A DNA stretch of 63,902 nucleotides, filler included, from Octopus bimaculoides (GCF_001194135.2; 7 parts of 7 records of this genome joined end to end with filler, not necessarily neighbours in it), one strand, 5' to 3'; positions 5,763 to 52,810 are shown, counted from the whole stretch's first letter. The notes: a model not told the origin generated them from the sequence alone. Numbers and translations are program-made.

Positions 5763-5898
5763 ATGTGTCAGCGGCCAGCCATGAGACTCGAACTCACATC
5801 CCTGTGAATACGCGTAGCAGTGCTTTACCTTTAAGCTAAACTGAGACGCGTAATCACAGGTATGTGAATTCGAGTCTCATGACCGGCAGCCGACATAT
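5763..5898. mobile_element. Fold-back element built from a tRNA-like sequence
   Basis: 53-bp inverted arms (5763-5815 / 5846-5898, 8 mismatches). Minus strand reads TAGCTTAAAGGTAAAGC...GAGTTCGAGTC (A-box and B-box like). Confidence 0.65.
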
Positions 5899-6005
5899 TT
5901 TTCTGCAAAATATGGGCAGTTTATCCTGTACATGTTATATTATTGTCATTATCCCGCGTTTGAGAATAATATTATTTCCTTATCTTACAGAATTATATAT
6001 CTAAT

Positions 6006-6377
6006 GTGGAGGCGCAATGGCTTAGTGGTTAGGGCAGCGGACTCGCGGTCATAGGATCGCGGTTTCAATTCGCAGACCGGGCGTTGTGAGTGTTTATTGA
6101 GCGAAAACACCTAAAGCTCCACAAGGCTCCGGCAGGGGATGGTGGCGAACGCTGCTGCACTCTTTCACCACAACTTTCTCTCACTCTTACTTTCTGTTTC
6201 TGTTGTGCCTGTAATTCAAAGAGTCAGCCTTGTTACACTGTGTCACGCTGAATATCCCCAAGAACTACGCTAAGGGTACACGTGTCTGTGAAGTGCTCAG
6301 CCACTTGCACGTTAATTTCACGAGCAGGCTGTTCAACTGGAACCCTCGACGTCGTAAGCGACGGAGTGCCAACAACA
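6006..6377 (+). mobile_element. SINE family C, full length
   Basis: tRNA-like head GGCGCAATGG..AGTGGTTAGGG..GGTTTCAATTC. Perfect 11-bp TSD ATATATCTAAT at 5995-6005 and 6378-6388. Confidence 0.92.
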
Positions 6378-7106
6378 ATATATCTAATAGCAGGAGAAAT
6401 AGTGTTGTTAAGTAATAAAATAATTTATAGGCATTCCAACGAAAAATAAAGAAAATCTTTGTTAGTGTGTTGCTTGCATTTTTAATGCATGGACAATTAA
6501 GAAGCTCAAACTTGTATAAGTTCAGTGATGGCTCCGTTCTCTGCTTCTTATATAAAACTGAAGAGCTATTGTTAGTTTCATTTCCCTGCTAGCTTTCTGC
6601 CGAACATAGAAATATATCTTTGTCATCTTTTAGTGAGTATTATTTGACGATTCCTTTTCATTTCCTCTTATTCTATGTTCTTGCCTTCCTTTTAACGCAA
6701 ATATCTATTATTTTGTGTTCTATGAATAGCTACCATTTTGAATCACTCTGTCTACATATGTATGGAGAATAGCTGGTTGAAATGTAATTTAGAATGTCCA
6801 AGCAAGACTTGTTTGTTTTGACGTGAACCAAGTGATAACACGCATTCTGAACACTTTTCCTGAAACAAGGGAAAAATCTGAATGTAGTTTTAAACTTTTA
6901 GCTCATAGAATCGTAATCTAATACCTTGTGGGAAGTTAAATAAAAGAAACTGTAGTATTCATTGAATTCGTTGCCGTTTTCTTCTCACTGTCTCTGTTTT
7001 GTTAGGATCATTAATCATTGTCTAAACCAAACATCCCACCCTTTTCAGGATATCAAATTACAACCACTGTCCATCGGATTTAAGGCAATTTATGACTGTT
7101 ATTTAG

Positions 7107-7181
7107 TCAAGGCTTCAGTGATTCTATACAGTCTATGGCACGTGGCAAAAGTGCTACGCCAGAAACCGTCATAAATAACAG
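7107..7181 (+). CDS. Candidate internal exon (75 nt, phase 2-2): QGFSDSIQSMARGKSATPETVINN
   Basis: ttatttag acceptor, CAG|gttatg donor, open frame; no recognisable homology. Confidence 0.2.
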
Positions 7182-7365
7182 GTTATGGAAATCAGCTATA
7201 CATATCCCTGCACATACATTGCAAATCCACAAAATTATATCTTTCTTGTAGTTCGTAAATGCATTGTTGTTATAGGTGCGATTAAACATCGGCTACGGTA
7301 AATGAATAAAATCTATTATCCCAAATTGGAGTGCAGTGCATTACATACATATAAATGTGTGTGCA

Positions 7366-7427
<62 letters not shown>

Positions 7428-7523
7428 CCTATTACAGTTCTATATTTAAGAGATGAGAAATTATGTACAATATTCAGCATTATTTACATTTGGCGGATAT
7501 TTGTCCTCATCTTGTTTGTTGTT

Positions 7524-7567
7524 AACACGTTTCGGTTGATATTACCCTCCAGACTTCCTCAGGTATC
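7524..7567 (-). ncRNA. Minimal hammerhead ribozyme, degenerate copy in the left arm
   Basis: Minus strand gatac-CTGAGGA-A-gtctg..caacc-GAAA-cgt-gtt; stems partly eroded. Confidence 0.45.
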
Positions 7568-7620
7568 TTGGGGAAATTTCGAACCAGGGTTCTCATTCCT
7601 AAGGTATTTTTCGATGTTGC

Positions 7621-7674
<54 letters not shown>

Positions 7675-7749
7675 TGTCACTGCCTGGAATCGAACTCAGA
7701 ATCTTGGTGGTAGTAGCCCACGCTGTTAACCACTACGCCATTTTCCGAA

Positions 7750-7795
7750 GACACCTGATGAAGGCTGGTGGGTATATCAACCGAAACGTTGTGTT
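7750..7795 (+). ncRNA. Minimal type I hammerhead ribozyme (Penelope-type)
   Basis: GACAC-CTGATGA-A-GGCTG(10 nt)CAACC-GAAA-CGT-T-GTGTT. Helix I 5 bp, helix II 4 of 5 pairs, palindromic ACGT helix III. Confidence 0.7.
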
Positions 7796-7863
7796 AACAA
7801 CAAACAAGATGAGGACAAATATCCGTCAAATGTAAATAATGTAAATAATGTTTATATATATAT

Positions 7864-7899
<36 letters not shown>

Positions 7900-8248
7900 G
7901 ATATATTTATATATATATGTTTGTGCGTGTGTGTGTCTGTATGTGTGTTTAACATAAAGGCACATGAGGTGCCTACCTGCTAGAAAGAGGAGCTAAAACC
8001 CTCGGTTAAACCAACAATCACACTGAAAAATTCAACACATAACAAAAGTAGTCGGTCGAATGGATAAAGAATTTAAACATACTATAACAGCTTAATGCTA
8101 TATAGTTTGACATTTGGATGCACTTGTAACATTATTTCACGTTCTGGCGAAAAGGCCTTAGCACTCCTCAGCAAGTTTTACTAAGTGAGTGCATGTATTA
8201 AATGATTTTTACCTAAAATGTATGTATTAAATGATTTCAAAATAGATA

Positions 8249-8288
<40 letters not shown>

Positions 8289-8606
8289 GACAGCGAAACG
8301 GGCTGATTACTACCTAGCTCAGATACCAGGAAACCTCAAAATGGCTGAAGTTCAAAAGATAGTGCTCATGGGAACTGCCCATATCCTACGTAAAATACTG
8401 TCTATGTGATCTCAAAGTTTAAAACAAACACATATTTTTCTTATGGTTTCTCAAACATTCTCTAGAACAACACTATGTACAAATCCAAATATATGATACC
8501 CTGGGCATAACACCTACATGAACGTCTAACTTGTTGACTCTTGAGGTCTCTGGGTGAGACTTGGATCCAACTTGTACAAATGCAAAGCAAAAGTCAACCA
8601 TAAAAT
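8289..8606 (+). mobile_element. R4/Dong-type LINE 3' end (ORF C-terminus plus 3' UTR) flanked by (TAA)n tracts
   Basis: 8290-8409 translates to ..QIPGNLKMAEVQKIVLMGTAHILRKILSM*, a typical RLE-LINE C-terminus. (TAA)n at about 8254-8288 and 8607-8649. Confidence 0.75.
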
Positions 8607-8607
8607 G

Positions 8608-8649
<42 letters not shown>

Positions 8650-9160
8650 GCGAGCACAAACGACTTCATGACAATGTGGCAACAATGATCCATTGGGAGC
8701 TCTGTGGAAATCACAGCCTACAAAGAGCAAAGACGTGGTATGAGCGAACTTCAGAAGGAGTTAGCGAAAATGAAAATTGCAAAATCCTGTGGGATGCAAT
8801 TATCCATTGCGTTGACCCGACCAGACATAGGAAACCGGACATTGTTGTGGTGAATAAAAAAGACATGTATGATAAGCGACATAGCATGCCCCGGTGACAA
8901 CAGGATCAATGTGAAAGAAGAAAAGAAAGAAGCAACTATGACGATTTAAAGTCGGAAATACGAACGTTGTGGTCAATGAAGAGAGTAGATGTGATACCAA
9001 CAGTAATTGGTGCACTTGGAAGTATCAGCACTCAACTACCAACATGGCTGAAAAAGATGGGTGCAAGTGTGAAGGTAGAACACCTACAAAAATCAGCATT
9101 GTATGGAACTGCAAGAATTCTTCGCAGGGTTCGATATGGCAAGCTAATTGTCTCGGCTAT
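8650..9160 (+). pseudogene. R4/Dong-type LINE restriction-like endonuclease domain, frameshifted
   Basis: KRLHDNVATMIHWELC..KILWD..RKPDIVVV..DIACPGD..K..YDDLK..IGALG..LQKSALYGTARILRRV. Confidence 0.88.
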
Positions 9161-10064
9161 TGTTTGATCCAGGATTACGACTCCGTCAAAGAGATGAGCT
9201 ATGGAAAAAACGCATCGGATAAAGTGCAACCGAACCTGTTCAAAATCAAGGAAATGTTGGAGTTGTTGCAACTGTCGATGCCTACGTACCGTCAGTAAGA
9301 CTTTCCCACCTTAATGAAGCAGATGATGACAAGAGCACCTGACCAGGTGAACACGTTTCTTCCACAGAAAGTAAAACAGCATGCGGTGCCCTCCAGTCAA
9401 ACAACAGTAGATGACGGGGAGAATGTGGGCATTTACCATCTTTATCTGACATCTCTGAGGAAGTTCCCTAGGTGGTTGCTCTGTTTGTCACTTCATCCCA
9501 GTTCTCTGAAGGATTGGAGCAAATCAGAAACCAATTTAAATGGTCCGTGTATCCACCGCCCCATGATGATATTAGACCGTATGTACCTGCTTCTCAAGAT
9601 GCTGAGCTGTAGTCCCAGTAATTATTTTTAGTATAGGCCCCAATCCAGCAACTTTGAAGTGAGGAGCTCTGCGTATTATAATATAAACCTTAGCACAGGA
9701 CTGATACTCTATTTTAGTAATCCCATGAGCGATGAAATATAATTTTGACTTCGGTGAGATCGAACAATACATCATGTTCTTTGGATGAGCTACTCACCAC
9801 ATACGAATACTTTCAGTCATTTTAAACGGAAATTATTTTGCCTTTTACATTTTACGAAATTTAAAGTCTAGATAGCATATGTTCATGAAGATATTTCAAC
9901 GTAGACGAAAATTTGCCGTCTGGCGTTAGTATTTAGCAACGGATACAAATGAAATTAAAATATCAATTTACTACAACAAACTAGGTGTGATAGGATGCGG
10001 TAGATGGGAACTGGGGAAAAGATGTACAGTGATCTTTGACTTATATTTTCCTGTTACAATTTAG

Positions 10065-10137
10065 AAACAGCTGCTTCATAAAAGTTTTGTATTCACCTTC
10101 AGAAAGCTTAATGATATTGCCGTCAAGATAACTAAAG
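10065..10137 (+). CDS. Candidate exon (73 nt, phase 0-1): KQLLHKSFVFTFRKLNDIAVKITK
   Basis: Good acceptor ttttcctgttacaatttag, weak donor AAG|gttaaa, only one open frame. Confidence 0.25.
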
Positions 10138-10643
10138 GTTAAATGATAAAACTCGTCTGTGGAATATTTTTCTTATCTTTTGCCTTGTGAAAAATTTCAA
10201 TAGATTACTGATTCTGTAGAGTTTGTTTTATTTTCTGTGAATCTATATCCATTTGTACAACGAGTACATTCACAAAAGAAATGCTACTTGCTGATGATAC
10301 TGTGCTGCTGCTAAAATGGTTGCATATATTATTACAGTTGTTTGTTAAAGTCGATAACGGCTTTTGTTATATATCGTCGGAAATGTATAGGGAGATTTTA
10401 GGAGACCTAAAATGTTTAATACTCCATGTTTCAACAGACATAATTTGCCATTGATTCCTTCTCATATATGTTCATGTAATATATTTATCTCACTCACTGT
10501 GATTCTGTCTCATATATATATTTGTATGTATGTGTGTATGTGTGTGTGTATGCGCGTGCGTGCGGGCAACAAAGGAAAGCAAGGGTATTTTCAGTAACAC
10601 TCATGACGAATTCTTGATTTATTAGAATCATTTTCGTTTCCAG

Positions 10644-10667
10644 AGAAGAAAGAATTATTATTTAGAG
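10644..10667 (+). CDS. Candidate micro-exon (24 nt)
   Basis: Acceptor cattttcgtttccag and perfect donor GAG|gtaagt; reading frame ambiguous (KKELLFR or RRKNYYLE). Confidence 0.35.
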
Positions 10668-11141
10668 GTAAGTTGGACCAGCCCAGACCCAAATGAGAAG
10701 GTGTGGTATACCTAAATTACAAGAACCCTCCAAAAGCTTACATCCCATTAATGAGAAGACAGTCTAATTGTCTGGAGAATATTGGACAGCAGTGGACACG
10801 TATTTCAGAGTTAGAAGTCCTCATCGGAACAGTCACACTACCTTAATAGATCGAAATATGCAGGTAAATAAATATCGAGTAGAACACGTTTATGACCTAA
10901 ATAACAAAAATGCTATAAGTATTCCACCAGTGAAACTGCAGAAGAGGTCACTACGTGGTTTTGGGTAAATGGAACAGTCCAAGAGTTTGGTGTTACTGGG
11001 ATTTAAGTTGCAACTTGATCAACTCCGACTGTGTTAAACGGGCAAGGGGTTCTAATAGGTAAAATCCCGTAATTCTCTGAGATTTCAGAAATAACACTAA
11101 AGATGTATTCCAGACCATCTGCCAAATATATCTCAAAGTTA

Positions 11142-11177
<36 letters not shown>

Positions 11178-11194
<17 letters not shown>

Positions 11195-11410
11195 ATATAT
11201 ATGTAAGTATGTGTGTGTATGTGTGTGTGTGTATATATATGTAAGTATGTGTGNNNNNNNNNNATGTGTGTGTGTGTGTGTATATATATGTAAGTATGTG
11301 TGTGTATGTGTGTGTGTGTATATATATGTAAGTATGTGTGTGTATGTGTGTGTGTGTGTATATATATGTAAGTATGTGTGTGTATGTGTGTGTGTGTGTG
11401 TGTATGTGTG
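11178..11410. repeat. Higher-order minisatellite (about 40-bp unit made of GT/TA runs plus GTAAGTAT)
   Basis: Unit (GT)n-(AT)4-GTAAGTAT-GTGTGTGTAT repeated about 5 times, interrupted by a 10-N gap. Confidence 0.85.
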
Positions 11411-11575
11411 TGCGTGCGTGTATGTTTTGTAGTATCTTTCAGGTTTCACTTGTAGATTTAATCATTCATTTCAAACCCGTTCTTCTTCAACAATGAACTT
11501 TCGATAATATATTAGTGGCATTTACCAATTAAGATATATTACTTTATCTGCTAGAATGCCTTTCTTCATTTTTAG

Positions 11576-11603
11576 GAAATGACAGATCCAGGAAGAATCT
11601 TCA
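11576..11603 (+). CDS. Candidate micro-exon (28 nt)
   Basis: Strong acceptor cctttcttcatttttag and donor TCA|gtgagt. Confidence 0.35.
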
Positions 11604-13644: not shown

Positions 13645-13886
13645 TACTCTTTTACTCTTTTACTTGTTTCAGTCATTTGACTGTGGCCATGCTGGAGCAC
13701 CGCCTTTAGTCGAGTAAATCGACCCCAGGGCTTATTCTTTGTGAGCCTAGTACTTATTCTATCGGTTTTTCTTTTGCTAAACCACTAAGTTACGGGGACG
13801 TAAACACTTTAGCATCGGTGGTCAAGCGATGTTGGAAAAGCAAATACAGACACACAATCATATACACACACATATACATATATATG
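13645..13886 (-). mobile_element. SINE family A, 3' half
   Basis: Reverse complement of the tail and body, ending at the internal microsatellite. Confidence 0.88.
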
Positions 13887-16224: not shown

Positions 16225-16440
16225 GTAAGATACTTTATTTCAAGTTGCTCCAGTCCACTCACCTGTCAAAAATGAGTAGTACCTGTTATTCAAAAGGCCC
16301 AGCCTTGTCACATTCTGTGTTATGCTGAATCTCCCGGAAAACTACGTTAAGGGTACGCGTGTTTGTGGAGTGCTCAGCCACTGGCACGTTAATTTCACAA
16401 GCAGGCTCTTCCACTAATCGCATCAACGCCATCGCAACAG
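16225..16440 (+). mobile_element. SINE carrying the family C body/tail behind a different upstream segment
   Basis: GTACCTG..CAGCCTTGTCACA..CTACGTTAAGGGTAC..GTTAATTTCAC matches family C, but upstream is GCTCCAGTCCACTCACCTGTCAAAAATGAGTA. Confidence 0.7.
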
Positions 16441-16690: not shown

Positions 16691-16836
16691 TTCCTCGTGT
16701 TCTTTTCTGATGAAGAGCGTAGGCTCGAAACGTAAAAGACTTTCTCACCTTCCCGAGCGTTAAACTAATACACTTGATTGTTGTTCATACACCTGTCTTC
16801 GTCTTTTGTTTTTCTGTAAATTTCAACTATACACAC
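16691..16836 (+). mobile_element. Family D Penelope-type pseudo-LTR fragment with minimal hammerhead (16701-16739)
   Basis: TCTTTT-CTGATGA-A-GAGC GTAG GCTC-GAAA-CGT-A-AAAGA; homologous to 52660-52810 and 27835-27975. Confidence 0.7.
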
Positions 16837-17189
16837 NNNNNNNNNNNNNNNNNNNNNNNNNNNNNNNNNNNNNNNNNNNNNNNNNNNNNNNNNNNNNNNN
16901 NNNNNNNNNNNNNNNNNNNNNNNNNNNNNNNNNNNNNNNNNNNNNNNNNNNNNNNNNNNNNNNNNNNNNNNNNNNNNNNNNNNNNNNNNNNNNNNNNNNN
17001 NNNNNNNNNNNNNNNNNNNNNNNNNNNNNNNNNNNNNNNNNNNNNNNNNNNNNNNNNNNNNNNNNNNNNNNNNNNNNNNNNNNNNNNNNNNNNNNNNNNN
17101 NNNNNNNNNNNNNNNNNNNNNNNNNNNNNNNNNNNNNNNNNNNNNNNNNNNNNNNNNNNNNNNNNNNNNNNNNNNNNNNNNNNNNNNNA

Positions 17190-17263
17190 TATACCGCCAC
17201 CAAAACAGGTTGATTGCCCAGTCAGCCTTGCCAAATCGTCCAAACAGCCACGCCCAGTTGTTA

Positions 17264-17297
<34 letters not shown>

Positions 17298-17399
17298 CAT
17301 ATATATTTATATATGTACAAGACAATTGGGCGCGGCTGTTTGGGCACTGACGATTTGGCACGTCTGACTGGGCAAGGAACCTGTTTTGGTGACGGTATA
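17190..17399. mobile_element. Fold-back element with (TA)-rich loop
   Basis: Inverted arms 17190-17261 / 17322-17399 (TATACCG.CACCAAAACAGG...); left end abuts a gap. Confidence 0.7.
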
Positions 17400-18698
17400 T
17401 CATGGCACTGGAGGCAAACACATTCATGCATACGAATGTAACGGGTGACACGCAGAAATATATATAAACACACACACATACATACATACATAAATACATA
17501 CATACATTCATACATACATGTCTTGTGTTTGGGGTTAGAAGTTTAGAGTTAGAGTATATAATGCGTCGCAAAATTTCATTGCAAATGATAATTCGTTTTT
17601 ATACCGTAAGGTTTCATTGCATTTTTTCATCTCTAAATGTTTTATAAACTTTATTTTCTTTCATTAAAATTTTTCATCTCTAAAAATTATTCACAACGTT
17701 TCAATTTTCTTTCATTATATTCCTTTTATTATTAGAAAGGAAAAAAAAAAACACATAGCAATAGCGATTTCCGGTATGTCGATAATGGAGGTTTCTGATT
17801 GGGTAAAATTAGCAAAAATGTCAATTTTTAAGGGTTCATAATTTTTTATCATTAATTCCTGCCAAACATTAATGTAATTTTTGCAATTAGCATGCAAATC
17901 TAGAAAATTTAAAATAAATCGGGCACAGTGACTCAAACGGAAACGATTGTGTATGGTCGATAATTTCTGAGATGAAAATTAAATTGAATCATCATTTCGC
18001 AGAACTAACAAAGGAGTTTCTACTCGTCTATGTGCCATGTTAACAGCTTGAGATAGTAGCCATATCTCCCTCGGAGCACATTCTTCAGTTTTAAAAATGG
18101 ACGGACATTGGAAAATGTAGTCTGACAATAAACTGCTTACCACTAAAGGCACAAGGCCTGACATTTTTTGGGAAAAGGGATTAATCGATTAATCGATTTT
18201 TTTGTCAATTCTGAATGGATTTTTTCCCAAAATTTCCTTCTTGATGTAGTTTTGATTGCTGATGACGGAAATTACATTATTTCTTTTTTCTTTTCGTAAA
18301 AGTAATAATAAAGAAGTTTTTTTTTAGTTATAAAGATCCCAACCTTGTGAACAACACAACTGTGCCTGCGCCTAATGTTGTATTAAATACGTGAAACTAT
18401 CAGAATAAAGCAGGATGGTCGTGGCGGGAATGCTTTTGATCATAGAACTACTTTGCCAGACCTGACCTGGGGCTAAATAACATCATCACTGCCTTATTGC
18501 CACCACCACGTCACCACCACCTNNNNNNNNNNNNNNNNNNNNNNNNNNNNNNNNNNNNNNGCCACCACCACCACCGTCACCGCCAGCACTACCACCACCA
18601 TCGATGTCGCTGCCGCCACCACCACCACCACCGATGCCGCCGCCGTCAGACCCCATATAAATCAATGTTGAAACAAAGCAGGTAGGTATAGGGTATCA

Positions 18699-20820: not shown

Positions 20821-21310
20821 GTTTGGAACTATTTTTTAGCCCCAGATCCATTGATGGAACTGATCCATTATCAAGGGCATTCCAACCATGACCAGCTTGT
20901 CTTTTTATCTCTATGCAAGGAACTCATGCATGATATGAGGGAAGTTTAACTGCTATTTCTAGTGAATAATGTTAGACAAATATAAGTAGTTGTGGTGATG
21001 GTAGGAAAGATGGAGGTGCAAGTAAAGAAAATAAATATCATTTTAGATTTTTTTTTTTTNNNNNNNNNNNNNNNNNNNNNNNNNNNNNNNNNNNNNNNNN
21101 NNNTTAATTAATTAANNNNNNNNNNNNNNNNNNNNNNNNNNNNNNNNNNNNNNNNNNNNGGGACGATACGATAATGTAGAGTGTGGTAGTGTGATAGATG
21201 AAAAGATAAGTTAGTAGCAATTCATACATACATACACACACACACATATACATATATGCATATATTCATGCATGAATGCATGCATACATACATACATGCA
21301 TTATAATAAA

Positions 21311-21545
21311 GGCGGCGTGCTGGCAGAAACGTTAGCACACCGGGGGAAATGCTTAGCCGTATTTCGCCTGTCTTTATGTTCTGAGTTCAAATTCCGCCGA
21401 GGTCGACTTTGCCTTTTATCCTTTCGGGGTCGATAAATTAAGTACCAGTTGCACACTGGGGTCGATGTAATCGACTTAATCCCTTTGCCTGTCCTTGTTT
21501 GTTCCCCTCTATGTTTATCCCCTTGTGGGCAATAAAGAAATAAGA
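21311..21545 (+). mobile_element. SINE family B, full length, tail type 1
   Basis: Head GGCGGCGTGCTGGCAGAAACG; tail CCCCTTGTGGGCAATAAAGAAATAAG. Confidence 0.92.
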
Positions 21546-21695: not shown

Positions 21696-22012
21696 CACTA
21701 AAGTGACAAAGACATCTAGTCAGTAATCCTAGAAATAAATTTTATCATTTATGTTTCACTTTTAACGTTTATGAAATTAGCTTGAGATTTCAATGAAAAT
21801 CTTATAAACCGACAAGGCGAGCTGAGTTTACCCGTAGGCACTGTGAAAGCCACTGATGAGCATCAAAATGTGGAAGCATTTAAATGCGAAATCATCGATC
21901 ATCTGGCTATGTCTGTTGATGTTGAGATAGTACTTTCCGTAGATATTGAGTTGTTTTTGACTATTATTTCTAGCACCACTGGTGCTGATAGGTGCCTTTG
22001 TCACTTTCGTGT
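21696..22012 (+). mobile_element. Short fold-back element with an internal hammerhead, lying between microsatellites
   Basis: Imperfect inverted arms AAAGTGACAAAG..CTAGAAATAA (21696-21739) / TTATTTCTAG..CTTTGTCACTTT (21963-22012). Confidence 0.6.
21848..21908 (+). ncRNA. Type I hammerhead ribozyme with canonical core
   Basis: AGCCA-CTGATGA-GCAT(20 nt)ATGC-GAAA-TCATCGATCAT-C-TGGCT. Helix I 5 bp, helix II 4 bp plus extension, near-palindromic helix III, AUC cleavage triplet (C21903). Confidence 0.75.
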
Positions 22013-23650: not shown

Positions 23651-23827
23651 GACGCAGGAGTGGCTGTGTGGTAAGTAGCTTGCTTACCAACCACATGGTT
23701 CTGGGTTCATTCCCACTGCGTGCACCTTGGGAAAGTGTTTTCCACTATAGCCTCGGGTTGACCAAAGCCTTGTGAGTGGATTTGGTAGACAGAAACTGAA
23801 AGAAGCCCGTCGTATATATGTATATAT
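23651..23827 (+). mobile_element. SINE family A, 5' half
   Basis: Head through GAAGCCCGTCG, ending in (TA)n. Confidence 0.9.
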
Positions 23828-24044
23828 GTCACACACAACATTCTGTATTATAGTACAACAATATTATTTGTTCATAAATAGTATCAAAGAATGCAAATAT
23901 AAGAATTACAGACTGATGCTTGGCTGTGGAACTTCGATATCGTTTGTTAGCTGACGTCATCCGCAGACGGGTTAATTTCTATGAAATTAAACCCGTTAGA
24001 TTTCATCTGGACGATTTATTATTACTGCCGTGAGGTGGCGTGCC

Positions 24045-26749: not shown

Positions 26750-26946
26750 TCTGTGTTTGTACCTCACCATCGCTTGACAACCGATGTTGGTGTGTTTAGG
26801 TCCCCGTAGCATAGCGGTTCGGCAAAAGAGACCGATAGAATAAGTACCAAGCTTACAAAGAATAAGTCTAGAGTGGATTTCTTCGACTAAAAAAGGTAGT
26901 ACTCCAGCATGGCCACAGTCATAAATGACTGAAACAAGTAAAAGAA
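26750..26946 (+). mobile_element. SINE family A, 3' half (5' part lost in or before the gap)
   Basis: CATCGCTTGACAACCGATG...ATGACTGAAACAAGTAAAAGA. Confidence 0.88.
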
Positions 26947-27324: not shown

Positions 27325-27557
27325 AGCATACTTTTATGGTTGCGACGACCTACACGTGTTTCCGCTGCTATGAGTATGGGCAGTCGCATATGCAACCGGG
27401 AATAATTTTCTGTGCAGCTTCTTTCAAGGTCTTTCGACTAGCTTGACTTAAAGCGAACTCGAAGCTGCACAGAAAATTATGCCTGGTTGCATGTGCAACT
27501 GCCCATACTCAGAGCAGAGGAAACACGAGTAGGTTGCCTTAACCATGAAAATATGCT
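27325..27557. mobile_element. Fold-back element (97-bp arms, 39-bp loop)
   Basis: Arms 27325-27421 / 27461-27557, about 85% inverted identity by eye. Confidence 0.75.
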
Positions 27558-27834: not shown

Positions 27835-27975
27835 TTAAAAAAAAATTTTAAAACACGAACTCGAAGACAAGATACAAAGAACAACAAACCGATTGTTTTG
27901 GGTTTGTGCTCAGGGAATGGAGAGCGAAATGTCTTTTACATTCGAGCCTACGATCTTCTACAGAAAGTAAAGAAT
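27835..27975 (-). mobile_element. Family D pseudo-LTR, degenerate, with hammerhead remnant (27931-27968)
   Basis: Minus strand TTT-CTGTAGAAGATCGTAGGCTC-GAAT-GTAAAAGAC, followed by family D downstream sequence. Confidence 0.6.
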
Positions 27976-32360: not shown

Positions 32361-32440
32361 ACACTGATTCGGTAGCCATGATAAAACACCGAGTTTCGGA
32401 TGCCGGGATGGGAACCCACGCCAACATCTCTTCAGTAAAG
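32361..32440 (-). ncRNA. Hammerhead-like motif next to (TA)n; helix I eroded
   Basis: Minus strand CTGAAGA-GATGTTGG(14 nt)CCGGCATC-C-GAAA-CTCGGT(14 nt)ACCGAAT-C. Helix II 8 bp, helix III 6 of 7 pairs. Confidence 0.5.
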
Positions 32441-33075: not shown

Positions 33076-33308
33076 GGGCTGGGAGCTGGCAGAAACGTTA
33101 GCACGCCTGAGGAAATACTTAGCTGGATTTCGTCCTCTGTTACGTTCTGAGTTCAAACTCCGCTGCGGTCGACTTTGCCTTTTATCCTTTTGGGGTCGAT
33201 TAAATAAGTACCAGTTACGCACTGGGGTCGATATAATCGACTTAATGCTTTTGTCTCTCCACGTTTGTCCCCCTTATGTTTAACCCCTTGTGGGTAATAA
33301 AGAAATAA
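33076..33308 (+). mobile_element. SINE family B, full length, tail type 1
   Basis: Colinear with 21311-21545. Confidence 0.9.
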
Positions 33309-33926: not shown

Positions 33927-34084
33927 TGTATGTGTGTGCTTATGTATGCATGTCTCTTCTATTTTTTTCATTATTATAAATCTTCCACTGAGGAGGGAGC
34001 CGGTACCCATGTATGCAGCCAGACTTCCCACGTGATCAGAAGAGATAAACCTATTTCCCCTTTATCATGTAACTTATTTTCCTT

Positions 34085-34298
34085 TCTTTTCTACTCTAGG
34101 CACAAGGCCCGGAATTTTGGGAGAGGGGGCCAGTCAATTACATCGACCCCAGTACGCAAATGGTACTCAATTCATCGACCCCGAAAGGGTAAAAGTCAAA
34201 GTCGACCTCGGCGGAATTTGAACTCAGAACGTAAAGACAGACGAAATACTGCTAGGCATTTCGCCCGGCGTGCAAACGTTTCTGCCAGCTCGCAGCTT
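34085..34298 (-). mobile_element. SINE family B, full length, tail type 2
   Basis: Reverse complement; tail GGCCTTGTGCCTAGAGTAGAAAAGAA. Confidence 0.9.
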
Positions 34299-34432
34299 TA
34301 TCATGTAAATTATATTAACATGATACAACTATTATATTGGATGACAAATATATTAAGTTTCGACCTTCATTTTTAATCATAATGTCTCACTGGTAACATG
34401 TGATACTTTTAACTTACGTGTTAACATGCACA

Positions 34433-36950: not shown

Positions 36951-37029
36951 ATACAAAGCTTTCAGCGTTTTATATATGAAAGGGTTTTTTGTATTATTGT
37001 AGCATTTATGTGCTTCAATATACTGAGGT

Positions 37030-38200
37030 GAGTTTGGAGGGGGTGGGTGGGGACGGAGGAGGAGATGAGGTCATTGATAGTGGAGGACACAGTCTGTTGG
37101 TAGCTGGGCGTAGGGTCCGAGGACAGAGGGCAGTAGAAGGAGGTGTCTTGAAATTGGCGGAGAGCTTCTGCCTTGTAGAGATCCGCGCGCCACACCACTA
37201 CGACTGCACCCTTGTTGGCCGGTTTTATGATGATGTCAGCGCGGCGTCGGAGACATCGAAGGGCCGAGAGTTCGGCTGGGGAGATGTTCAGATGACGGAG
37301 ACGGCTGGAAAAGTTAAATCGGTCCACAGCGCGCTGACAGGCGCCCGCAAAAAGCTCGACTGCTTGGAACTGGCCAGGAGCTAGCGTCCACAGGGATGGT
37401 CGGTGGCCAGGTCGGTGAAGCAGTCCTCATCATTAGATGCAGGTGGAGTGTCGCGGAAAAGCGCACACAATCGAACACGGCGCACAAAGCTGTGGATATC
37501 GGCACGATTCCGAAATTCGTTACCTGATACAGTGAGAGGCATGAAGCGCAGACCCTTACGGAGGAGGGAGCGCTCCTCCTCGGAGAGGGGCAGATCTGGA
37601 GGAATGGTAACAATAGACTGAAGTTGAGAAAGGGTGGATGGGATAGAAGAAGGAGGGGTAAATAGGATAGAAGTAGGAGGGGCGGTAGGAAGGATGGAAG
37701 GCTTGGAGGGAGAGGATGGGGTATATGTGTGTGTGGGGGGGCAGGGGTTGGGTGAGGGGGGTATCAGAGAGGGAAAGGGGGTAGTGGAGGAGTTAGGGTA
37801 GTGGCATCGAGTGTGATGGAAAGGAGGAGTGAGTGGAGTTTACGTTGTTTGGTGTGAGCGATAAAATTGATGAAAGAGATAATTTAAATGAATTATGTAA
37901 CGTAACGTAGTGTTGGCATGGGAGGGTGACTGAGTGTTGAAGAAGATGGAAAAAAGCAAGATGGAGAAGACGGCCGATGGTGTGTATTTTGGACAGATTA
38001 GAGCGAATGGTGGTACGCATAAGGTGGTAGGATGTAGTACGGAGTACGAGTAGGATGGTTGTAGTAGAGTGGAGATGGGTGGAAATGGAGGCGGGAAACC
38101 TTTAGGGATGAGGCGAAGATGTAAGCAGCGTCTGAGAAACGAATGTGACTACAAGCTAGATGTTTACCGCAGGCTTCTCTTGAGGGCGAAGTTGTCTGAT
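37030..38200 (-). pseudogene. Penelope-like element, 5' part of ORF (N-terminal domain to start of RT), with frameshifts and stops
   Basis: HSFLRRCLHLRLIPKGF; PPDLPLSEEERSLLRKGLRFMP; NISPAELSALRCLRRRADIIIKPANKGAVVVVW..Y..EA.RQ...Y..L..DPT. Confidence 0.88.
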
Positions 38201-38247: not shown

Positions 38248-38381
38248 AATAGGACATCTACTCGCTAGAAATAGCAGCAAAAGACTATATACCACAAAAA
38301 TTAGGGATAATTTCGAAATTATCCCTAATTTGTGTGGTATATAGTCTTTTGCTGCTATTTCTAGCGAGTAGATGTCCTATT
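38248..38381. repeat. Near-perfect 134-bp palindrome ending at a contig edge
   Basis: 67-bp arms centred on TTCGAA (38314/38315), one mismatch, no loop. Confidence 0.9.
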
Positions 38382-41860: not shown

Positions 41861-41862
41861 GA

Positions 41863-45011: not shown

Positions 45012-45073
<62 letters not shown>

Positions 45074-46065
45074 NNNNNNNNNNNNNNNNNNNNNNNNNNN
45101 NNNNNNNNNNNNNNNNNNNNNNNNNNNNNNNNNNNNNNNNNNNNNNNNNNNNNNNNNNNNNNNNNNNNNNNNNNNNNNNNNNNNNNNNNNNNNNNNNNNN
45201 NNNNNNNNNNNNNNNNNNNNNNNNNNNNNNNNNNNNNNNNNNNNNNNNNNNNNNNNNNNNNNNNNNNNNNNNNNNNNNNNNNNNNNNNNNNNNNNNNNNN
45301 NNNNNNNNNNNNNNNNNNNNNNNNNNNNNNNNNNNNNNNNNNNNNNNNNNNNNNNNNNNNNNNNNNNNNNNNNNNNNNNNNNNNNNNNNNNNNNNNNNNN
45401 NNNNNNNNNNNNNNNNNNNNNNNNNNNNNNNNNNNNNNNNNNNNNNNNNNNNNNNNNNNNNNNNNNNNNNNNNNNNNNNNNNNNNNNNNNNNNNNNNNNN
45501 NNNNNAAAAAAAAAAAAAAAAAAAGAAAGAAGAAAGAAAGAAAGAAAAAAGCTGTCAAGTATCTAATAAACAGCAGGAATAAACAGCTTTGCAATGAAAT
45601 AAATATCGGTGCGGCGTTTGTTGTTTTGTATCATGATAAACAGTAAAAGTATATTTAACAGTTGCCACAATGCCTTCAGCCTAACCAGAGAATACAATAA
45701 AGTTTTCTGTCTCTTTATATACGTACATACATACATACATTCATTCATACATACATATACACATTAATATATGTATATATATATATATATTCATTAGTAG
45801 ACACACCCAAGAAGTGGATATCCGCCACAAGTGTGTGCGTGAAGTAGAGCAACAAGTAGTTAACTCGCTGAGAAGTCGCATTGATCGAGGAGTGGTTGAG
45901 GTGGTGTTAAAGTTCTGGGTGTGTTGAGGCTTGCAATCAAACAAGAAAATTATATGGTTGACTAAGAACAATGAATTGTAAGCTAGAACGAAAGTGAATA
46001 TCCAGAAATAATCGCTATCGTCATTATGATCATGATCATCATCATCATCGTCATCATCCTTATTA

Positions 46066-46240
46066 GGCGGCGAGCTAGCAGAATCGCTAGAACGCCTTAT
46101 TAAATGCTTAGCGGTATTTTGCAGGTCGTTACATGCCGAGTTCAAATTTCGCCAGAGTCGACTTTGCCCTTCATCCTTTCGGGCGTCGATAAAATAAATA
46201 TCAGACGAGCACTAAGTTCGATGTAATCGACTTACTCCCT
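46066..46240 (+). mobile_element. SINE family B (1st of a tandem triplet)
   Basis: Head and core present; tail short. Confidence 0.85.
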
Positions 46241-46249
46241 TATTATTTA

Positions 46250-46466
46250 GGCAGCGAGCTGGCAGAAACGTTAGCACGCCGGGCGAAATGCTTAGCAGTA
46301 TTTCACCTGTCTTTATGTTCTGAGTTCAAATTCCGCCGAGGGCGACTTTGTCTTTCATCCTTTCGGGGTTGATAAATTAAGTACCAGTTTCGTACTGGAG
46401 TCATTTCGATCGACTGGCCTCCTCCTCAAAAAAATTTCGGGCCTTGTGGCTAGAGTAGAAAAGAAT
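46250..46466 (+). mobile_element. SINE family B (2nd of triplet), tail type 2
   Basis: Full length. Confidence 0.9.
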
Positions 46467-46625
46467 CGTTAGCATGCTGGGCAAAATGCTCTGCGGCATT
46501 TCGTTTGTCTTTAGGTCGACTTCGCCTTTCATCCTTTCGGGGGATAAAACAAATACCAATTGAAGCCTGGGATCAATGTAACCAACCTACCCCTCCCCCA
46601 AACATGTTGGCCGTGTGTCAAAATT
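46462..46625 (+). mobile_element. SINE family B (3rd of triplet), internally deleted
   Basis: Begins at AGAAT, shared with the previous copy's tail. Confidence 0.8.
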
Positions 46626-46680: not shown

Positions 46681-46732
46681 CTAGCAGAGATACCCGGCCT
46701 TGCACGGATTAAAATGGCATAGATTTTGATTG
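46681..46732 (-). mobile_element. Helitron 3' end remnant
   Basis: Minus strand CCGTGCAAGGCCGGGTATCTCTG-CTAG|T. Confidence 0.55.
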
Positions 46733-47030
46733 CTTTACTTGTTTCAGTCATGTGACTGCGGCTATGGTGGAGCACCGCTGTTGGTCGAAGAAATCAACCA
46801 CAGGATTATTCTTTGTAAGCCTAGTACTCATTCTGTCAGTGTCTTTTACCAAACCGCTAAGTTACAGGAATGTAAACACAGCAATATCAGTTGTCAAGAA
46901 ATGGTGGGGTACAAACACAAGACACAGGCACACACATACACAAATATACACATATATACGACAGTGTTCTTTCAGTTTCCAAGTACGAAATCCACTCACA
47001 AGGTTTTGGTCAGCCTGAGGCTATAGTAAG
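46733..47030 (-). mobile_element. SINE family A, 5'-truncated
   Basis: Reverse complement of tail and body. Confidence 0.85.
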
Positions 47031-47053
47031 TATATATATATATATCATATATC

Positions 47054-47461
47054 GTGCGAATGGCTTTATTATACGGTGCCATATTTTACAATCTTGTAAA
47101 TAATAATAATGATATTTTTATATAAGCTGAAAGCTTATGCCGTTCACAGTGCAATGACTAACGAAAATAGTGTAATAATGGAGCATATAAGCCCTCGACA
47201 GAAAAAAAGAAGGCTTTCCCATCCGCGTAGGACGCGAATCCACATTCCTTTGTGAACATGACTGGGTGTGTTACCTTCACACACGGATAGGAAAGCCTTC
47301 TTTTTTCTGTCGAGTGCTTATATTCCTCGTTATTAGACTATTTTCCTTAGTCATTGCACGGTGAACGCCATAAACTTTAAGCTTATATTAAAAAAAATAC
47401 CATTATTATTATTATTTAGATGATTGTAAAATACGGCGTCGTATAACAAAACCATTTGCAC
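47054..47461. mobile_element. Large fold-back element with a tRNA-like loop
   Basis: About 175-bp inverted arms (47054-47228 / 47281-47461). Loop on minus strand reads TGTGAAGGTAACAC...GGATTCGCGTCC. TA-rich flanks. Confidence 0.78.
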
Positions 47462-47929
47462 CGAAAGTATATATATTTATAATTCTAAAACATGAACAGT
47501 TTCATAACATTGTTTGCAAAATAATAGCTAATCTTTTGCGAAGGATCGTATGTACAGTGAACACATGATTTTTGCTCTGGTAACTTCTGCTCTCTCCCAT
47601 ATTCACGCACGACCAGCTATATGTCGCTATGAGTCTCCCTCTGTTTACACAGTCGCTAGAAGGGGACTTAACTCATGCTCCGATTTGAAAATTGTTAGAA
47701 TTTATGGTTTAAAATTATTTCTAATACAAAAATTCAGGTCTTAGGAAGCAATAAAAAAAATAATAAATGACCGATTCCGGGCATTTTCGACCATGAGGAA
47801 TTCATTGGTGCGACTCCCAGATTACTATCTTGTAAGGTGTGGATTTCTATAGATGCAACACACACACACACACACTCAGAAACTCAGCTATACAATAGGT
47901 ATAGATAATAATAATAATAATTATTATTA

Positions 47930-48232
47930 TCTCTTTTACTTGTTTCAGTCATTTGACTGCTGCCATGCTGGAGCACTGCCTTTAGTTGAGGAAATCGACC
48001 CCAGGACTTATTTTTTGTAAGCCTAGTACTTATTCTATCGGTTACTTTTGCTGAACCGCTAAGTTACGGGGCCGTAAACACACCACCATCGGTTGTCAAG
48101 CGATGTTGGAGGGGGGGGGGACACAGACACACAAACACACACACATATATATATACTTATACATATATACGACGGGCTTCTTTCAGTTTCCGTCTACCAA
48201 ATCCACTCACAAAGTTTTGGTCGGCCTGAGGC
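47930..48232 (-). mobile_element. SINE family A, 5'-truncated
   Basis: Reverse complement, high similarity to the 2408 and 4316 copies. Confidence 0.9.
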
Positions 48233-49012
48233 GTTCGTCTTTTCATTCTGAGTTTAAAATTTCCCTCAGCACCTGAATAATTAAATAATTCTATTATGAT
48301 AGAATCGATACGATTTTGCAAGGAAGTAGCAAAAAATAAATTACTAGGGAACTATTATGAGGTGGGTATACACGTCTGGTGTATAATAGTATTATACAAT
48401 TAAATAGTTGGTTGTGGTCATCTAAAAATAACCTATCGCAGAAATGTATCCTAACACTGAACGCACTCCGTACTACTCGAACGTAGGTACGATACTCAAT
48501 ATTCACTGTTAAACCAACACACGATGAACTAACACGAACTCACGCGTAATCGGTTGGTCCGCCTTCAGTCACGTGGGGTATTCAGGATTCTCCCATAACA
48601 GGAAGTAACAAGTAAATTAGAAAAGGCGATTGGCATTGCGATAATCGTACTTGCAGCTCTCTACTATTTCTTCAATTGAAAGCTCGAAAGTTGGTAGAAT
48701 TCAGTCGCTTACTTTTTGACACGACAGACCAGAAGCTGTATAATATGGCAGCGTATATTATTGTTTGACTAGTATGAAGTACTGAGTTTTACTTAATCGA
48801 CTACACTCTCCACTCATAATGTGTCGCCTTTTGTTTAAGTTCGAAATAGTTATTACGAAGTATTCATCAAGGATTTCCATTAGATATTTATCTTAAACCC
48901 ACATAAATATTTCTGATGATCATGAATTACAGTATTAACTTTTTTTGTTTCGCATTCAATTTCTTAAAGAGAACAGTGTATGACTGCTGAATAATAAATT
49001 AACTTGTTAAAT

Positions 49013-49222
49013 AGGCGAGCTTGCAGAATCGTTCGCACACCGAGCAAAATGCTTAGCGATATTTCGTCCGTCTTTACGTTCTGAGTTCAAATTTCTCTAA
49101 GGTTGACTTTGCCTTTCATCCTTTCGGAGTCAATAAAATAAGTACCAGTTGTACACTGGGGTCGATGTAATAGACTTACATCTCCCTCGAAATTGCTGAC
49201 CTTGTGCCAAAATTTGAAACCA
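49013..49222 (+). mobile_element. SINE family B, tail type 3
   Basis: Tail GAAATTGCTGACCTTGTGCCAAAATTTGAAACCAA. Confidence 0.88.
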
Positions 49223-49844
49223 AGGAATTAACTTGTTGACTAGAGAGGCCCCGGAGATTGATTAGATTTAAGATCCTTTATATTCTTATAAATAAAATCC
49301 TTCATAAATTATATATCGTGTTTAAAGGAATTATTTTCGCTGAACTAAATTAACTTTTGACATAATCAGCCATATCCTGTTGGCTAATTTCTTTCCACTC
49401 AGCAACACTTTCATTGAGGTTAATGACCTCTGAGATGGGTTTGCAATACGTGTTCCCGAGTTTGTTGAATCATTTCCTTTCACTCATTTTTCGTACGTAA
49501 AATTTTCCATCCAAAATCAATAGCTCTGAATGCAATGGTTTACAACGGAATAATTTGCCCTCGGTTCGCTCACCTACTGAAATAACAGATGGTAAACCAA
49601 CGTATCATTTAATAGGTCTGGGACGGTCTTATTTTCTTCGTGACCACGTCAATGTATTTCTGTTGTTGTTGTTTAGCTCCGGTTAGTTTTAATCGACAAA
49701 CCTATGAAATCTGTTGGATATATGAGTGAAATTTGTTCCTAAAATTTTGGACGTGTAATTCTATACAAATATTTGTCAAGTACTATGTATTATATATTCA
49801 TGTTTTCAATCATACGTAGACAAAGATGTAGCTGGGTAGATAGA

Positions 49845-49995
49845 CTCAGGCGTGACTGTGAGATAAGAACTGTGCTTCCCAGCTACATGATTTCAGATTC
49901 AGTCCCATTGCTGGCACCTTGGACCAGTGTCTTCTATAACCAAACCCTTGTTAATGGATTTGGTAGACGGTAACTAGCAGAAGCCTGTCGTATAT
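49845..49995 (+). mobile_element. SINE family A, old 5' half
   Basis: ATTCAGTCCCATTGC..GGATTTGGTAGACGG..GAAGCCTGTCG. Confidence 0.7.
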
Positions 49996-50179
49996 GTATG
50001 CACATATGTTTATGTATGTGTGTATGTGTGCATATATATATACATACATACACACATACACGCGCGCGCGCGTGTTTCTCTTCTATTTTTAATCATTTAA
50101 ATTCTTCCTCCGAAGAAAGGACTGGTTTCTAACAAAGATATAAAATTCCGTCTTTGGAATGTAGATAACGAAAGCAATG

Positions 50180-51655
50180 TGACATTTTAAATCTGTGAAA
50201 AGTCTTGCATAATTTTACTGTTCCACTTACAGACTGATTTTGTAATGTGCAAGTCAGTTGGTTGATTTCTTTTTCTGAAAATCCAAGCTTATCCAAACTG
50301 ACAGCTAGGCATTTTCTTACAAAACCAAGTACTCCAATCCTTATTGGTATATATGTAAATTTGTAAACCGGATATAGAAGCTAGAGGTATAGAAGCAATT
50401 GTTCATAGTTATCCTCTTTCTCTTTGATTTTCAAAGAGATATGAACATCTGTTGAACAGTTGACCTCTATGGCGGTACATACTTTTTCTTGTTTGTCCCA
50501 AACAATATCCGGCTTGTTATGCTTACACTTGACAGATGTCTTTATGAGTATGTCCGACCAATATTCCTTGTGCTATTTGTGTACGTATTCAATAACAGGA
50601 AGATTCTCTATATTTATTCTAGGACAGTCTTTTTTCCGAATGGCATTGCATATTGTTTTTGCAACAACATCATGTCGCATAGGGAGGTAGTACTTTGATA
50701 ACATTTTTGGACAGCTGATTTCCAAAGAAATAAGGCATAACTACAATTTCGGTTGCATCTGGGAATTTCAAGGGTCACTTTTGCTGATTAGGTATTTAGT
50801 AGCAATCACCTGTTTTTGGATTCCAAATGTATTGCCTTCGAAGTGTGATGTGATGTGGTGGTCACGAATCCAAGAGAGGCTTCACTTCATGTGAATGTTA
50901 CTATCTTCTTTAAGTCTTTGGGAAACATATCCATGCACGATCTTTTTTGGTATATTGGGCGTTGCACCTTCAGCTCTTCTTTGAGGTATGCTAGTCCGGA
51001 TGTTTTAAGGTTGTACGGGAGGCCATCAGGAAGAAAGTGCTTCTTGAGGAGCTCACTTCCAATTCGTAAGATATTGTTTTTTTCGCTTTTCAGCACTAAA
51101 TTAATGTATTTATTTTTGCTGCTGTTGTTTAACAAGTGCAGTTTGAGAGAGACTATGCGACATTCGAAGGCTGCCTGCACTGATCCCAAGCCCCTACCTC
51201 TTTTATCTCTTCCTAGGTTGAGCCTGTCGAAGTCACTTTTCCTGTGGAGATATCCAGTTTATGTTAGAATCTTGCGGGTTTTTAATGTCTATGAAGTGGA
51301 TTTCTTCTACAAACTAGTCAAATATCCCAAATGTTGGAATCAGCACTGGTACTGCAAATACATTGTAAGAGGAAAGTTCTGACTGCCATACTTTTCTAAG
51401 TCTGGTGTAATATTCTTGGGTCACTAATTTTATTCACAGTACTTTTATATGATACATTTTCATGAATGCCTAGGTGCTTGTAGCATTCTTTGTGTGGGAC
51501 AGGAGAGATAGTGAGACTATTGATGTACAAGTTTTGTGTTTGGGGAACTGATTTCTCCAGATCGACAATCAACTAAGAACATTTCTTCTGGCCAAGTTTC
51601 ATTCCTATTTCAGCTGAAAATGTTATTAATTCCAGCTGTTTTTTGGCATTGTTAA
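50180..51655 (-). pseudogene. R4/Dong-type LINE: RT C-terminus, zinc-knuckle region and RLE domain; 5'-truncated and decayed
   Basis: Minus strand, across frameshifts: KKCS..CYKHLG; FAVPVLIPTFG..KSDFDRLNLGRDKRGRGLGSV; MRHDVVAK; KHNKPDIV; IGVLG..LQNQSVSGTVKLCK. Confidence 0.85.
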
Positions 51656-51762
51656 TATTTCTAGCATAAATCTTAGCCTAAATTTGGAAATATTGTATGT
51701 ATGTATATACATATATATGTATATATACATGTATGTATATATGTATGTATGTATGTATGTAT

Positions 51763-51924
51763 GTGTGTTTGTCCCCCGCTTCTGCTTGAGAGCCGGTGTT
51801 GGCTTGTTTACGACCCTCATAACTTTGCGATTCGGCAAAAGAACTGGAATCGATTTTTACAAAAAAACTCTTCAAGGTAATGCTACAACATGACCGCAGT
51901 TTTAATGACTGAAAAGATGAAAGA
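51763..51924 (+). mobile_element. SINE family A, old 3' half with deletion
   Basis: TGTTTGTCCCCC..GATTCGGCAAAAGA..ATGACTGAAA. Confidence 0.7.
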
Positions 51925-52413
51925 CACACCCACGCACACACACACGCACATATACACACACACAAACACGCGCGCGCGCCCAATTAGGAAAAAACACACA
52001 CATACACATACATAGACATAATGAGGAGATATGAGCAGGGCGAGTCTGGAAGTGAATTCAGCTATAAATAATAGCATGTGAAGTCTTAGGTAAAATATTT
52101 TTTAAATCCCTTGGATGGAAAAAAATGTCAAGGGTTATCTCGTCGTCATAGTTACAGAAAAAGAGAGTGAATGTCCCGTAGCCTTCGATCTTTTTCCCGT
52201 CTCAAACATTTTTATTTTTTTTTTTGCAACCCATTTCATTGCATGATATTATTTATAGGCGTATCCACCTCTAGGCGCACCCTGAAAATGCACACACACA
52301 CACACACACACACNNNNNNNNNNNNNNNNNNNNNNNNNNNNNNNNNNNNNNNNNNNNTTAATTAATTAANNNNNNNNNNNNNNNNNNNNNNNNNNNNNNN
52401 NNNNNNNNNNNNN

Positions 52414-52810
52414 CACACACTACAACTGACCAACCCCTTTCTCCCCTCCCCATTTTCACACATGCATACGTCAAGATCACCAGCATTCTATCTCTCACAC
52501 ACACAGCCCCTCGTTCTTCGATCACCGTTCTTTCTCCCCCTTTTGTTATCTCCCCCTTTTCTTAGCTCTCCTGTGTAAAAAAAGAATTCTAACTTCTGGT
52601 CAGCCATAGCTATGATTGACTGTTGACCGAACACTATTCAATTTTTTTCCTCCGTGTTTTTCTCCTTGTCTCCGTATTCTTTCTGTTGAAGAGCGTAGCT
52701 CGAAACGTTAAAGACTTTCCGTATTCCCGAGCGTCATACTAATACATCCTTTTGTTGTTTACACCACCTGTCCTCGTCTGTTGTTGTTTTTTCGTACATT
52801 CTCCCATATA
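52414..52810 (+). mobile_element. Family D Penelope-type 3' region/pseudo-LTR with hammerhead remnant (52678-52714)
   Basis: TCTTT-CTGTTGA-A-GAGC GTA GCTC-GAAA-CGT-T-AAAGA; ends in (TA)n; homologous to 16691-16836. Confidence 0.68.

Follow-up and report, generated by a model that had tools for sequence, protein, structure and literature searches.

A tRNA-headed, hammerhead-bearing fold-back family in Octopus bimaculoides, likely a passenger of Penelope-like elements

Short interspersed elements (SINEs) are usually taken to depend on long interspersed elements (LINEs). Here we describe family A, a short non-coding repeat with a transfer RNA (tRNA)-type head and a predicted hammerhead ribozyme, found in a 63,902-nucleotide stretch of Octopus bimaculoides DNA (GCF_001194135.2; seven parts of seven records joined end to end with filler; hereafter the window), which has 34.5% GC, 4,336 N and many microsatellites. 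We argue that family A is likely a passenger driven by RNA polymerase III (Pol III) and served by a Penelope enzyme, that is, a SINE copied by Penelope and not by a LINE.

The closest of these systems are Sm-alpha and Sj-alpha of Schistosoma, tRNA-derived, SINE-like repeats that carry a hammerhead, lie in tandem and are transcribed by Pol III (Weinberg 2019, PMC6765202; Copeland 2009, PMC2770079). Family A resembles them in its high copy number and in having a tRNA-derived head followed by a hammerhead. Unlike Sm-alpha, which is tandem and processed from multimers, the window copy of family A is solitary, outside any tandem array, with an inverted 5' copy, a one-sided tail and a hammerhead of the minimal, Penelope type; the available text on Sm-alpha mentions no Penelope partner. 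Animal retrozymes that lack long terminal repeats (LTRs) are similar in being non-coding, in their type I hammerhead and in a proposed Penelope-like mobilization, but they are tandem, promoterless, linked to the pseudo-LTRs of Penelope-like elements and present as circular RNA (de la Pena 2020, PMC7761336; Li 2026, 10.64898/2026.07.22.740005), whereas family A has A and B boxes and stands in the window as a fold-back monomer. The survey of Li, Clavereau and Pollet (2026) covered vertebrates, insects and a coral but no mollusc.

Insertions of endonuclease-bearing Penelope-like elements show an inverted 5'-truncated copy, a one-sided tail of 30-40 bp and a bias toward microsatellites (Craig 2021), and head-to-head palindromes and, in Adineta, trans-mobilization of pseudo-LTR-bearing sequence have been reported (Arkhipova 2013). 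In vitro, the tail corresponds to the sequence separating two internal start sites, AT-rich DNA is cut, and hammerhead cleavage is dispensable for insertion (Frangieh 2024). With the Neptune and Penelope/Poseidon clades family A shares the minimal hammerhead, the inverted 5'-truncated copy, the one-sided tail and, around the window copy, microsatellite flanks (Craig 2021; Cervera 2014; Arkhipova 2013; Frangieh 2024); unlike the endonuclease-bearing elements, it has no open reading frame (ORF), and a tRNA-type head replaces the pseudo-LTR promoter. As a short non-coding passenger it is comparable to MRC1 of Chlamydomonas (Craig 2021) and to a short non-autonomous Penelope of Heliconius (10.1101/596502), for both of which the available text mentions no tRNA head, and Chlamys elements are mostly without hammerheads. 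Helenus and Ajax (Kojima 2024, PMC10886601) are likewise non-autonomous, with a promoter derived from a small RNA and a partner that is not a LINE, but that partner is an LTR retrotransposon.

For cephalopods, 235 hammerhead matches have been counted in the giant squid genome. Annotation of Octopus vulgaris assigns 6.83% to Penelope-like elements and 11.6% to SINEs, with 893 of 900 recently active SINE families unclassified, and ribozymes go unmentioned in its supplement (Bonar 2026). In the open literature we found no description of a tRNA-headed Penelope passenger or of family A, Repbase, Dfam and SINEBase entries and a Zenodo library lying beyond that search; given its abundance, family A is very probably already in some repeat library under another label.

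Anatomy and abundance of family A

The window copy of family A (Table 1) is bordered by (TA)n on one side and (TATC)n on the other. Its two arms share one 3' terminus, the hammerhead and the tail are separated by about 60 nt of 3' sequence, and the whole unit folds as a long hairpin (z -16.5). Hammerheads were sought with a descriptor of the type I fold (stems I-III, no more than one mismatch in the core), using 12 dinucleotide shuffles as the control; the copy on the inverted arm matches, with the predicted cut after 7790. The 314-nt body contains no ORF for reverse transcriptase (RT) and GIY-YIG endonuclease, the window copy has no poly(A) or repeat tail, its sense strand (7746-7433) contains no run of four T, and Rfam returns no hammerhead match in 7430-7860.

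Table 1. Coordinates of the features discussed, counted from the first letter of the window
Feature	Coordinates	Strand	Remarks
Family A insertion	7433..7851	-	order: inverted 3' copy, head, (AAT)n, spacer, hammerhead, 3' part, tail
Family A tRNA-type head	7673..7746	-	A box 7740-7730, B box 7695-7687; no cloverleaf in the window copy
Family A internal (AAT)n	7623..7672	-	(AAT)17; also behind the head in other copies
Family A spacer	7568..7622	-	(AAT)n to hammerhead; equals the loose-end consensus before 7740/7748
Family A body hammerhead	7524..7567	-	decayed; 3-nt deletion at cleavage site; fails descriptor
Family A tail	7433..7466	-	about 35 nt; on body copy only, missing from inverted arm
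Family A inverted arm	7740..7851	+	5'-truncated copy of the 3' part, 88% identity to the body
Family A arm hammerhead	7750..7795	+	minimal type I: stem I of 5 bp, an additional A behind the core, stem II and a palindromic helix III
(TA)n flank	7853..7918		
(TATC)n flank	7366..7432		
Second tRNA-headed fold-back	5757..5904	-	tRNA-like 5845-5773, inverted 3' copy 5904-5850
Family B	16696..16830	+	minimal hammerhead 16703-16738 and 3' part of about 95 nt; probable truncated pseudo-LTR end
Family B copy	52673..52810	+	one core mismatch
Family B copy	27879..27966	-	decayed core; fails descriptor
Family C	21848..21908	+	lone hammerhead candidate; (CTAT)n begins 107 nt on
Hammerhead-like core	32361..32440	-	stem II alone; fails descriptor
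Penelope ORF fragment	37028..38200	-	broken front half of a Neptune-type ORF; frameshifts and stops; no RT core, endonuclease or pseudo-LTR

Family A was followed beyond the window with a query of 180 bases (7673-7852) at 80% likeness, in public data: two sets of DNA contigs (X1 from organism A, X13 from organism B) and two sets of raw, unstranded RNA reads (X21 and X22); for families B, C and D and the other fold-backs, the evidence is the window alone. Matches were found in 23,816 contigs of X1 and 19,628 of X13, and in 8,023 (X21) and 6,448 (X22) RNA reads. In X1 the summed depth over the head came to 1.4 million; it stood at 0.36 million at the junction, reached 2.1 million over the core and rose to 13.5 million near 7820. 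Set against the median of eight listed contigs, this gives about 27,000 for the head, 41,000 for the core and 260,000 for the 3' part, and X1 with X13 spans about 2-3 x 10^4, 4 x 10^4 and 2.6-2.9 x 10^5, ratios that convey orders of magnitude only, summed depth not being a copy number. Depth rises toward the 3' end, with the 3' part at about tenfold the depth of the head. A pattern of 28 nt from family A had no matches in metagenome, prokaryote and viral collections.

The original prediction hinged on ribozyme cores being conserved within families, and for family A, where this was checked, the core is intact in the majority. The majority letters at 7769 and 7780 support the hammerhead; at 7780, G makes up 90-96% in all four runs and restores a 5-bp stem II. 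In X1, among the 24 listed of the 29 places varying in at least 5% of the depth, one lies in the hammerhead core, and it is a CpG that varies at 10.6%, versus 11.5-14.2% at CpGs outside the core. Variation in the core is as expected from the neutral decay of an intact master.

Head and hammerhead lie on one RNA molecule, since single RNA reads span joints from 7676 to 7740 and from 7676 to 7748 (95 and 53 reads in X21, 67 and 52 in X22; 148 and 119 altogether, with 32-55 start places each). Loose ends at 7676 show (AAT)n behind the head in 143 and 120 contigs. These are two of the 15 joints listed out of 110. Nine others of the 15, in contigs of both organisms, connect the head at 7733-7741 to inverted arms, which start at eight places (7788, 7798, 7803, 7808, 7809, 7816, 7818 and 7823), with 2-9 letters between head and arm where these are listed. 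The last four comprise two strand switches inside the arm and two skips internal to the element. Behind 7741, the loose ends of 819 and 612 RNA reads run through six further head letters into an approximate inverted head (consensus agreement 0.63 and 0.62); these loose ends upstream of the head are head-to-head copies. At the far end, loose ends behind 7849-7851 in RNA reads give the tail sequence, and contig loose ends from 7843-7851 give mixed AT-rich flanks with low agreement.

These junctions bear on two readings other than a Penelope-copied SINE. The head-hammerhead-tail unit could belong to an autonomous Penelope as its pseudo-LTR, a tRNA-like stretch having been captured, and its copies would be truncated ends. 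The roughly tenfold excess of the 3' part over the head would suit this, as would the report that most single hammerheads are Penelope ends left by truncation (Cervera 2014), and sequence upstream of the head is readable only as 30-letter loose ends. Yet the inverted arms join within 2-9 letters of 7741, the head's own 5' end, and what the loose ends at 7741 agree on is an inverted head and not the end of an ORF. The clustering of arm joints at the 5' end of the head argues against a long template, whose truncations would not cluster there, and we regard the captured pseudo-LTR as unlikely. A fold-back DNA transposon of the miniature inverted-repeat (MITE) kind, with long terminal inverted repeats, is hardly credible: its fixed, symmetric termini are at odds with arms that start at no fewer than eight places, with a one-sided tail and with the strong 3' bias in depth, even granting the long arms, the TA-rich flanks, the apparently common head-to-head palindromic copies among the loose ends and a mariner-derived fold-back elsewhere in the window, at 58221.

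Two further signals in these data were pursued and discarded. The steepest depth step, at 7787-7798, spans the predicted cut but was not counted as a sign of cleavage; CpG variation coincides with it, and arm starts are not clustered at 7791. Nor do the reads give evidence of RNA editing: A>G places rose from 5 in the DNA contigs to 17-18 in RNA, but increases just as large were seen for G>T, for A>T and for C>T.

Proposed mobilization of family A

The variable inverted 5' copy, the one-sided tail and the 3'-biased depth of family A match the published signature of Penelope insertions. It has the 5'-truncated, inverted copy of its own 3' end with a variable breakpoint, a tail in the range of 30-40 bp on one end, and a minimal type I hammerhead, conserved across the family, near the 3' end; to these it adds the A and B boxes at the 5' end that characterize SINEs.

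Dong-R4 elements target microsatellites. In twin priming it is the upstream sequence that becomes inverted, and the process is not known to duplicate the 3' end. A conventional SINE dependent on a LINE (a Dong-R4, RTE or CR1 partner), with an incidental hammerhead and inversions produced by twin priming, would account for the tRNA-type head, and in Octopus vulgaris no other orders are as abundant as LINEs and SINEs (Bonar 2026). It is nevertheless a very unlikely account of family A, in which both arms share one 3' terminus, unlike the products of twin priming, no poly(A) or repeat tail is present, and a Penelope-type minimal hammerhead accompanies a one-sided tail.

If family A is copied by a Penelope enzyme, its master copies would be transcribed from the internal A and B boxes, and the 3' 110-150 nt of the transcript would imitate a pseudo-LTR. 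The Penelope protein would nick AT-rich or microsatellite DNA and begin reverse transcription at one of two internal sites, the choice between them yielding copies with or without the tail. A second, inverted and truncated copy would be laid down at the 5' end; the pattern itself, most copies being 5'-truncated and the breakpoints variable, is the one observed. With only a palindromic helix III, the hammerhead is predicted to cut as a dimer, and cutting would part the promoter from the 3' end, so that head-bearing copies would come from uncut RNA.

Several results weigh against this account. Rfam has no tRNA match for the head, and a target-site duplication is not readable in the microsatellite flanks. 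Edge effects and mismatches peculiar to the window copy confound the gradient in depth. No head-to-body joint occurs in the DNA contigs, probably because contigs break at (AAT)n, and the joints in RNA could also stem from a few expressed loci. In seven of the nine head-to-arm joints the short side has fewer than 30 letters at 80% likeness, which is unreliable in repeats; these joints are singly weak on that account, and it is their number and their presence in two organisms that carry the argument. RNA reads show no pile-up at the predicted cut or start site, unstranded RNA-seq being poorly suited to reveal one, and a 40-aa translation of the 3' part matched no longer protein, a weak test. Finally, the Penelope ORF fragment in the window shares no DNA with any hammerhead family, and no autonomous partner with the same 3' end was found.

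That fragment, which the original prediction placed at 37030-38200, is indeed present, as both HMMER relatives and tblastn attest. The tblastn support covers 37028-37662, about residues 140-355, in the region ahead of the RT core, and the part near 38100-38200 was recognized by eye only; word-index and Pfam searches failed to detect the decayed fragment. A full HMMER search with a stretch of 114 aa free of stops (37396-37055) yielded 1,842 relatives with E values of 0.001 or lower; among ten relatives scanned, six contain RVT_1 and seven a C-terminal GIY-YIG domain, which the fragment does not carry. The CX2-5CxxC linker that marks Neptune and Nematis occurs in 11 of 12 long relatives, and the fragment appears to be Neptune-type, or possibly of Nematis. 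It shows that such elements exist in this genome, but it is without a pseudo-LTR and has no DNA in common with family A. The motif CTGATGA at 38196 was considered as a hammerhead and rejected, as it lies on the strand opposite to the ORF and its second half is absent.

Other hammerheads, fold-backs and repeats in the window

The locus had been read as one diversified system of Penelope passengers, comprising at least four sequence-unrelated hammerhead families and six fold-backs of a single layout. In the window, the descriptor matches at four places, with cores at 7755, 16707, 21853 and 52683 (scores 14, 10, 10 and 9), against seven matches altogether, the best scoring 9, in the 12 shuffles. 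Three of the seven sites originally named outscore every shuffle, 52683 equals the best of them, and three fail: two of these, 7524 and 27931, are homologous to sites that pass but have decayed, and 32361 has stem II with no valid cleavage triplet or stem I. The four groups are unrelated outside the core, their DNA likeness being confined to core matches of 13-19 nt. Among the 150 of 162 Rfam matches for the window that were listed, none is to a hammerhead.

The hammerheads at 7755, 16707 and 52683 carry an additional A ahead of stem II, are closed by a G-C pair and have a helix III of four bases that is palindromic. These traits match the Penelope minimal hammerhead of Cervera (2014), which requires dimers and cleaves weakly. 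Truncation at the 5' end gives the most frequent form in which autonomous Penelope elements are found (Cervera and de la Pena 2014). Box-pattern searches found no A or B boxes upstream of families B, C and D, and the simpler reading is that families B (16701/52678) and C (21848) are likely 5'-truncated ends of autonomous Penelope elements. Apart from family A, the hammerheads of the window are thus read as likely ordinary ends of this kind. A short-period array lies within 170 nt downstream at four of the seven hammerhead sites (background share 0.12, binomial p 0.005), the distance having been chosen post hoc and two of the seven sites belonging to one element. By eye, short TA/CA runs or a gap close off two of the family B copies, and the third has neither.

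In 5763-52810 there are seven local inverted repeats whose arms reach about 40 nt or exceed it (5757, 7433, 17189, 27325, 38248, 47054 and 52036), with one outside, at 58221. The layout of an inverted 3' part followed by a body with A and B boxes is found in two of the seven, 5757 and 7433, and the other five do not share it; one of the seven contains a hammerhead. The element at 5757-5904 has both boxes and scores 28.6 bits against the Rfam tRNA model, whose gathering score is 29 (E 2e-4, 161 bases searched), is without hammerhead or microsatellite and occurs once in the window, and it is plausible as a candidate sister passenger family. ARAGORN found no tRNAs in the window.

Extending the Penelope account of family A to all four hammerhead groups and six fold-backs, as one diversified system, seems improbable. 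Four sites do pass the descriptor, microsatellites lie within 170 nt of four of the seven, and 5757 provides a second tRNA-headed fold-back; yet no A or B boxes were found for families B, C and D or for 17189, 27325, 47054 and 52036 by pattern search, 32361 fails the descriptor, and 38248 is a 98.5% palindrome abutting a gap. What stands of the original idea is family A, with a high-copy head and hammerhead and a variable inversion, and the finding reduces to this one strong family and one candidate (5757). That family A, among the most abundant repeats of the genomes sampled, represents an undescribed "Penelope SINE", a Pol III-driven, tRNA-headed, hammerhead-bearing element hijacking Penelope RT, with at least one independent, hammerhead-free sister (5757), is a proposal we advance tentatively, at somewhat less than even confidence.

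Most other fold-backs are likely unrelated, and several look like DNA-transposon derivatives. The one at 17189-17400 is symmetric around (TA)n, with TA-rich ends, and MITE-like; that at 52036-52284 has 43-nt terminal repeats and is also MITE-like, without a clear TA duplication. Long arms with short centers characterize 27325-27557 and 47054-47461, neither of which has an Rfam tRNA or hammerhead match. A tRNA-like center seen by eye in 27325-27557 was rejected, as it has no Rfam or box match; the center of about 55 nt in 47054-47461 looks by eye like a partial cloverleaf followed by T7 on the minus strand, again with no Rfam or box match. The palindrome at 38248-38381 (98.5%) ends at an N gap and is possibly an assembly artefact. 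At 58221-59114, arms of 215 nt are two mariner 5' ends in opposite orientation, with a transposase start on one strand and a mariner-type helix-turn-helix region on the other; for the mariner fragment, PDB gave no match and Pfam a weak one.

Other repeats are numerous. A conventional SINE has more than ten copies in the window (21309-21545, 33077-33308, 34084-34299, 46063-46622, 49014-49221, 57919-58134, 59402-59719 and others), which may resemble the octopus OR families; a second SINE with an A box, of about 390 nt (3476-3863, 6006-6379, 16276-16427, 61384-61445), may resemble the octopus OK family. A repeat of about 430 nt, with about ten copies split by (TA)n/(TG)n (2415-2850, 4320-4706, 13648-13836, 23657-23829, 26765-26946, 46734-47028, 47931-48232 and others), has a head that is tRNA-like by eye, with no box-pattern match. 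Fragments between (TAA)n tracts at 8289-8600 and 8650-9000 may, judged by a motif, be the 3' end of a restriction-endonuclease-type LINE, and 53627-53751 and 54781-54897 form an inverted pair with 74% identity, 1 kb apart.

Significance of a probable Penelope-copied SINE

If family A is what we propose, Penelope would be a third kind of partner for passengers derived from small RNAs, and family A would link SINEs of the Sm-alpha type with retrozymes. Tens of thousands of natural junctions would then be at hand for studying how Penelope elements form their inverted ends: with a template of about 300 nt and a fixed 5' end, counting junctions could test how the inverted copy arises, how the tail stems from two starts and what part the hammerhead plays. 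Cephalopods are known for heavy RNA editing, and the fold-backs of family A, with the z of -16.5 given above, form long double-stranded RNA. The classification of a large share of cephalopod repeats would also change.

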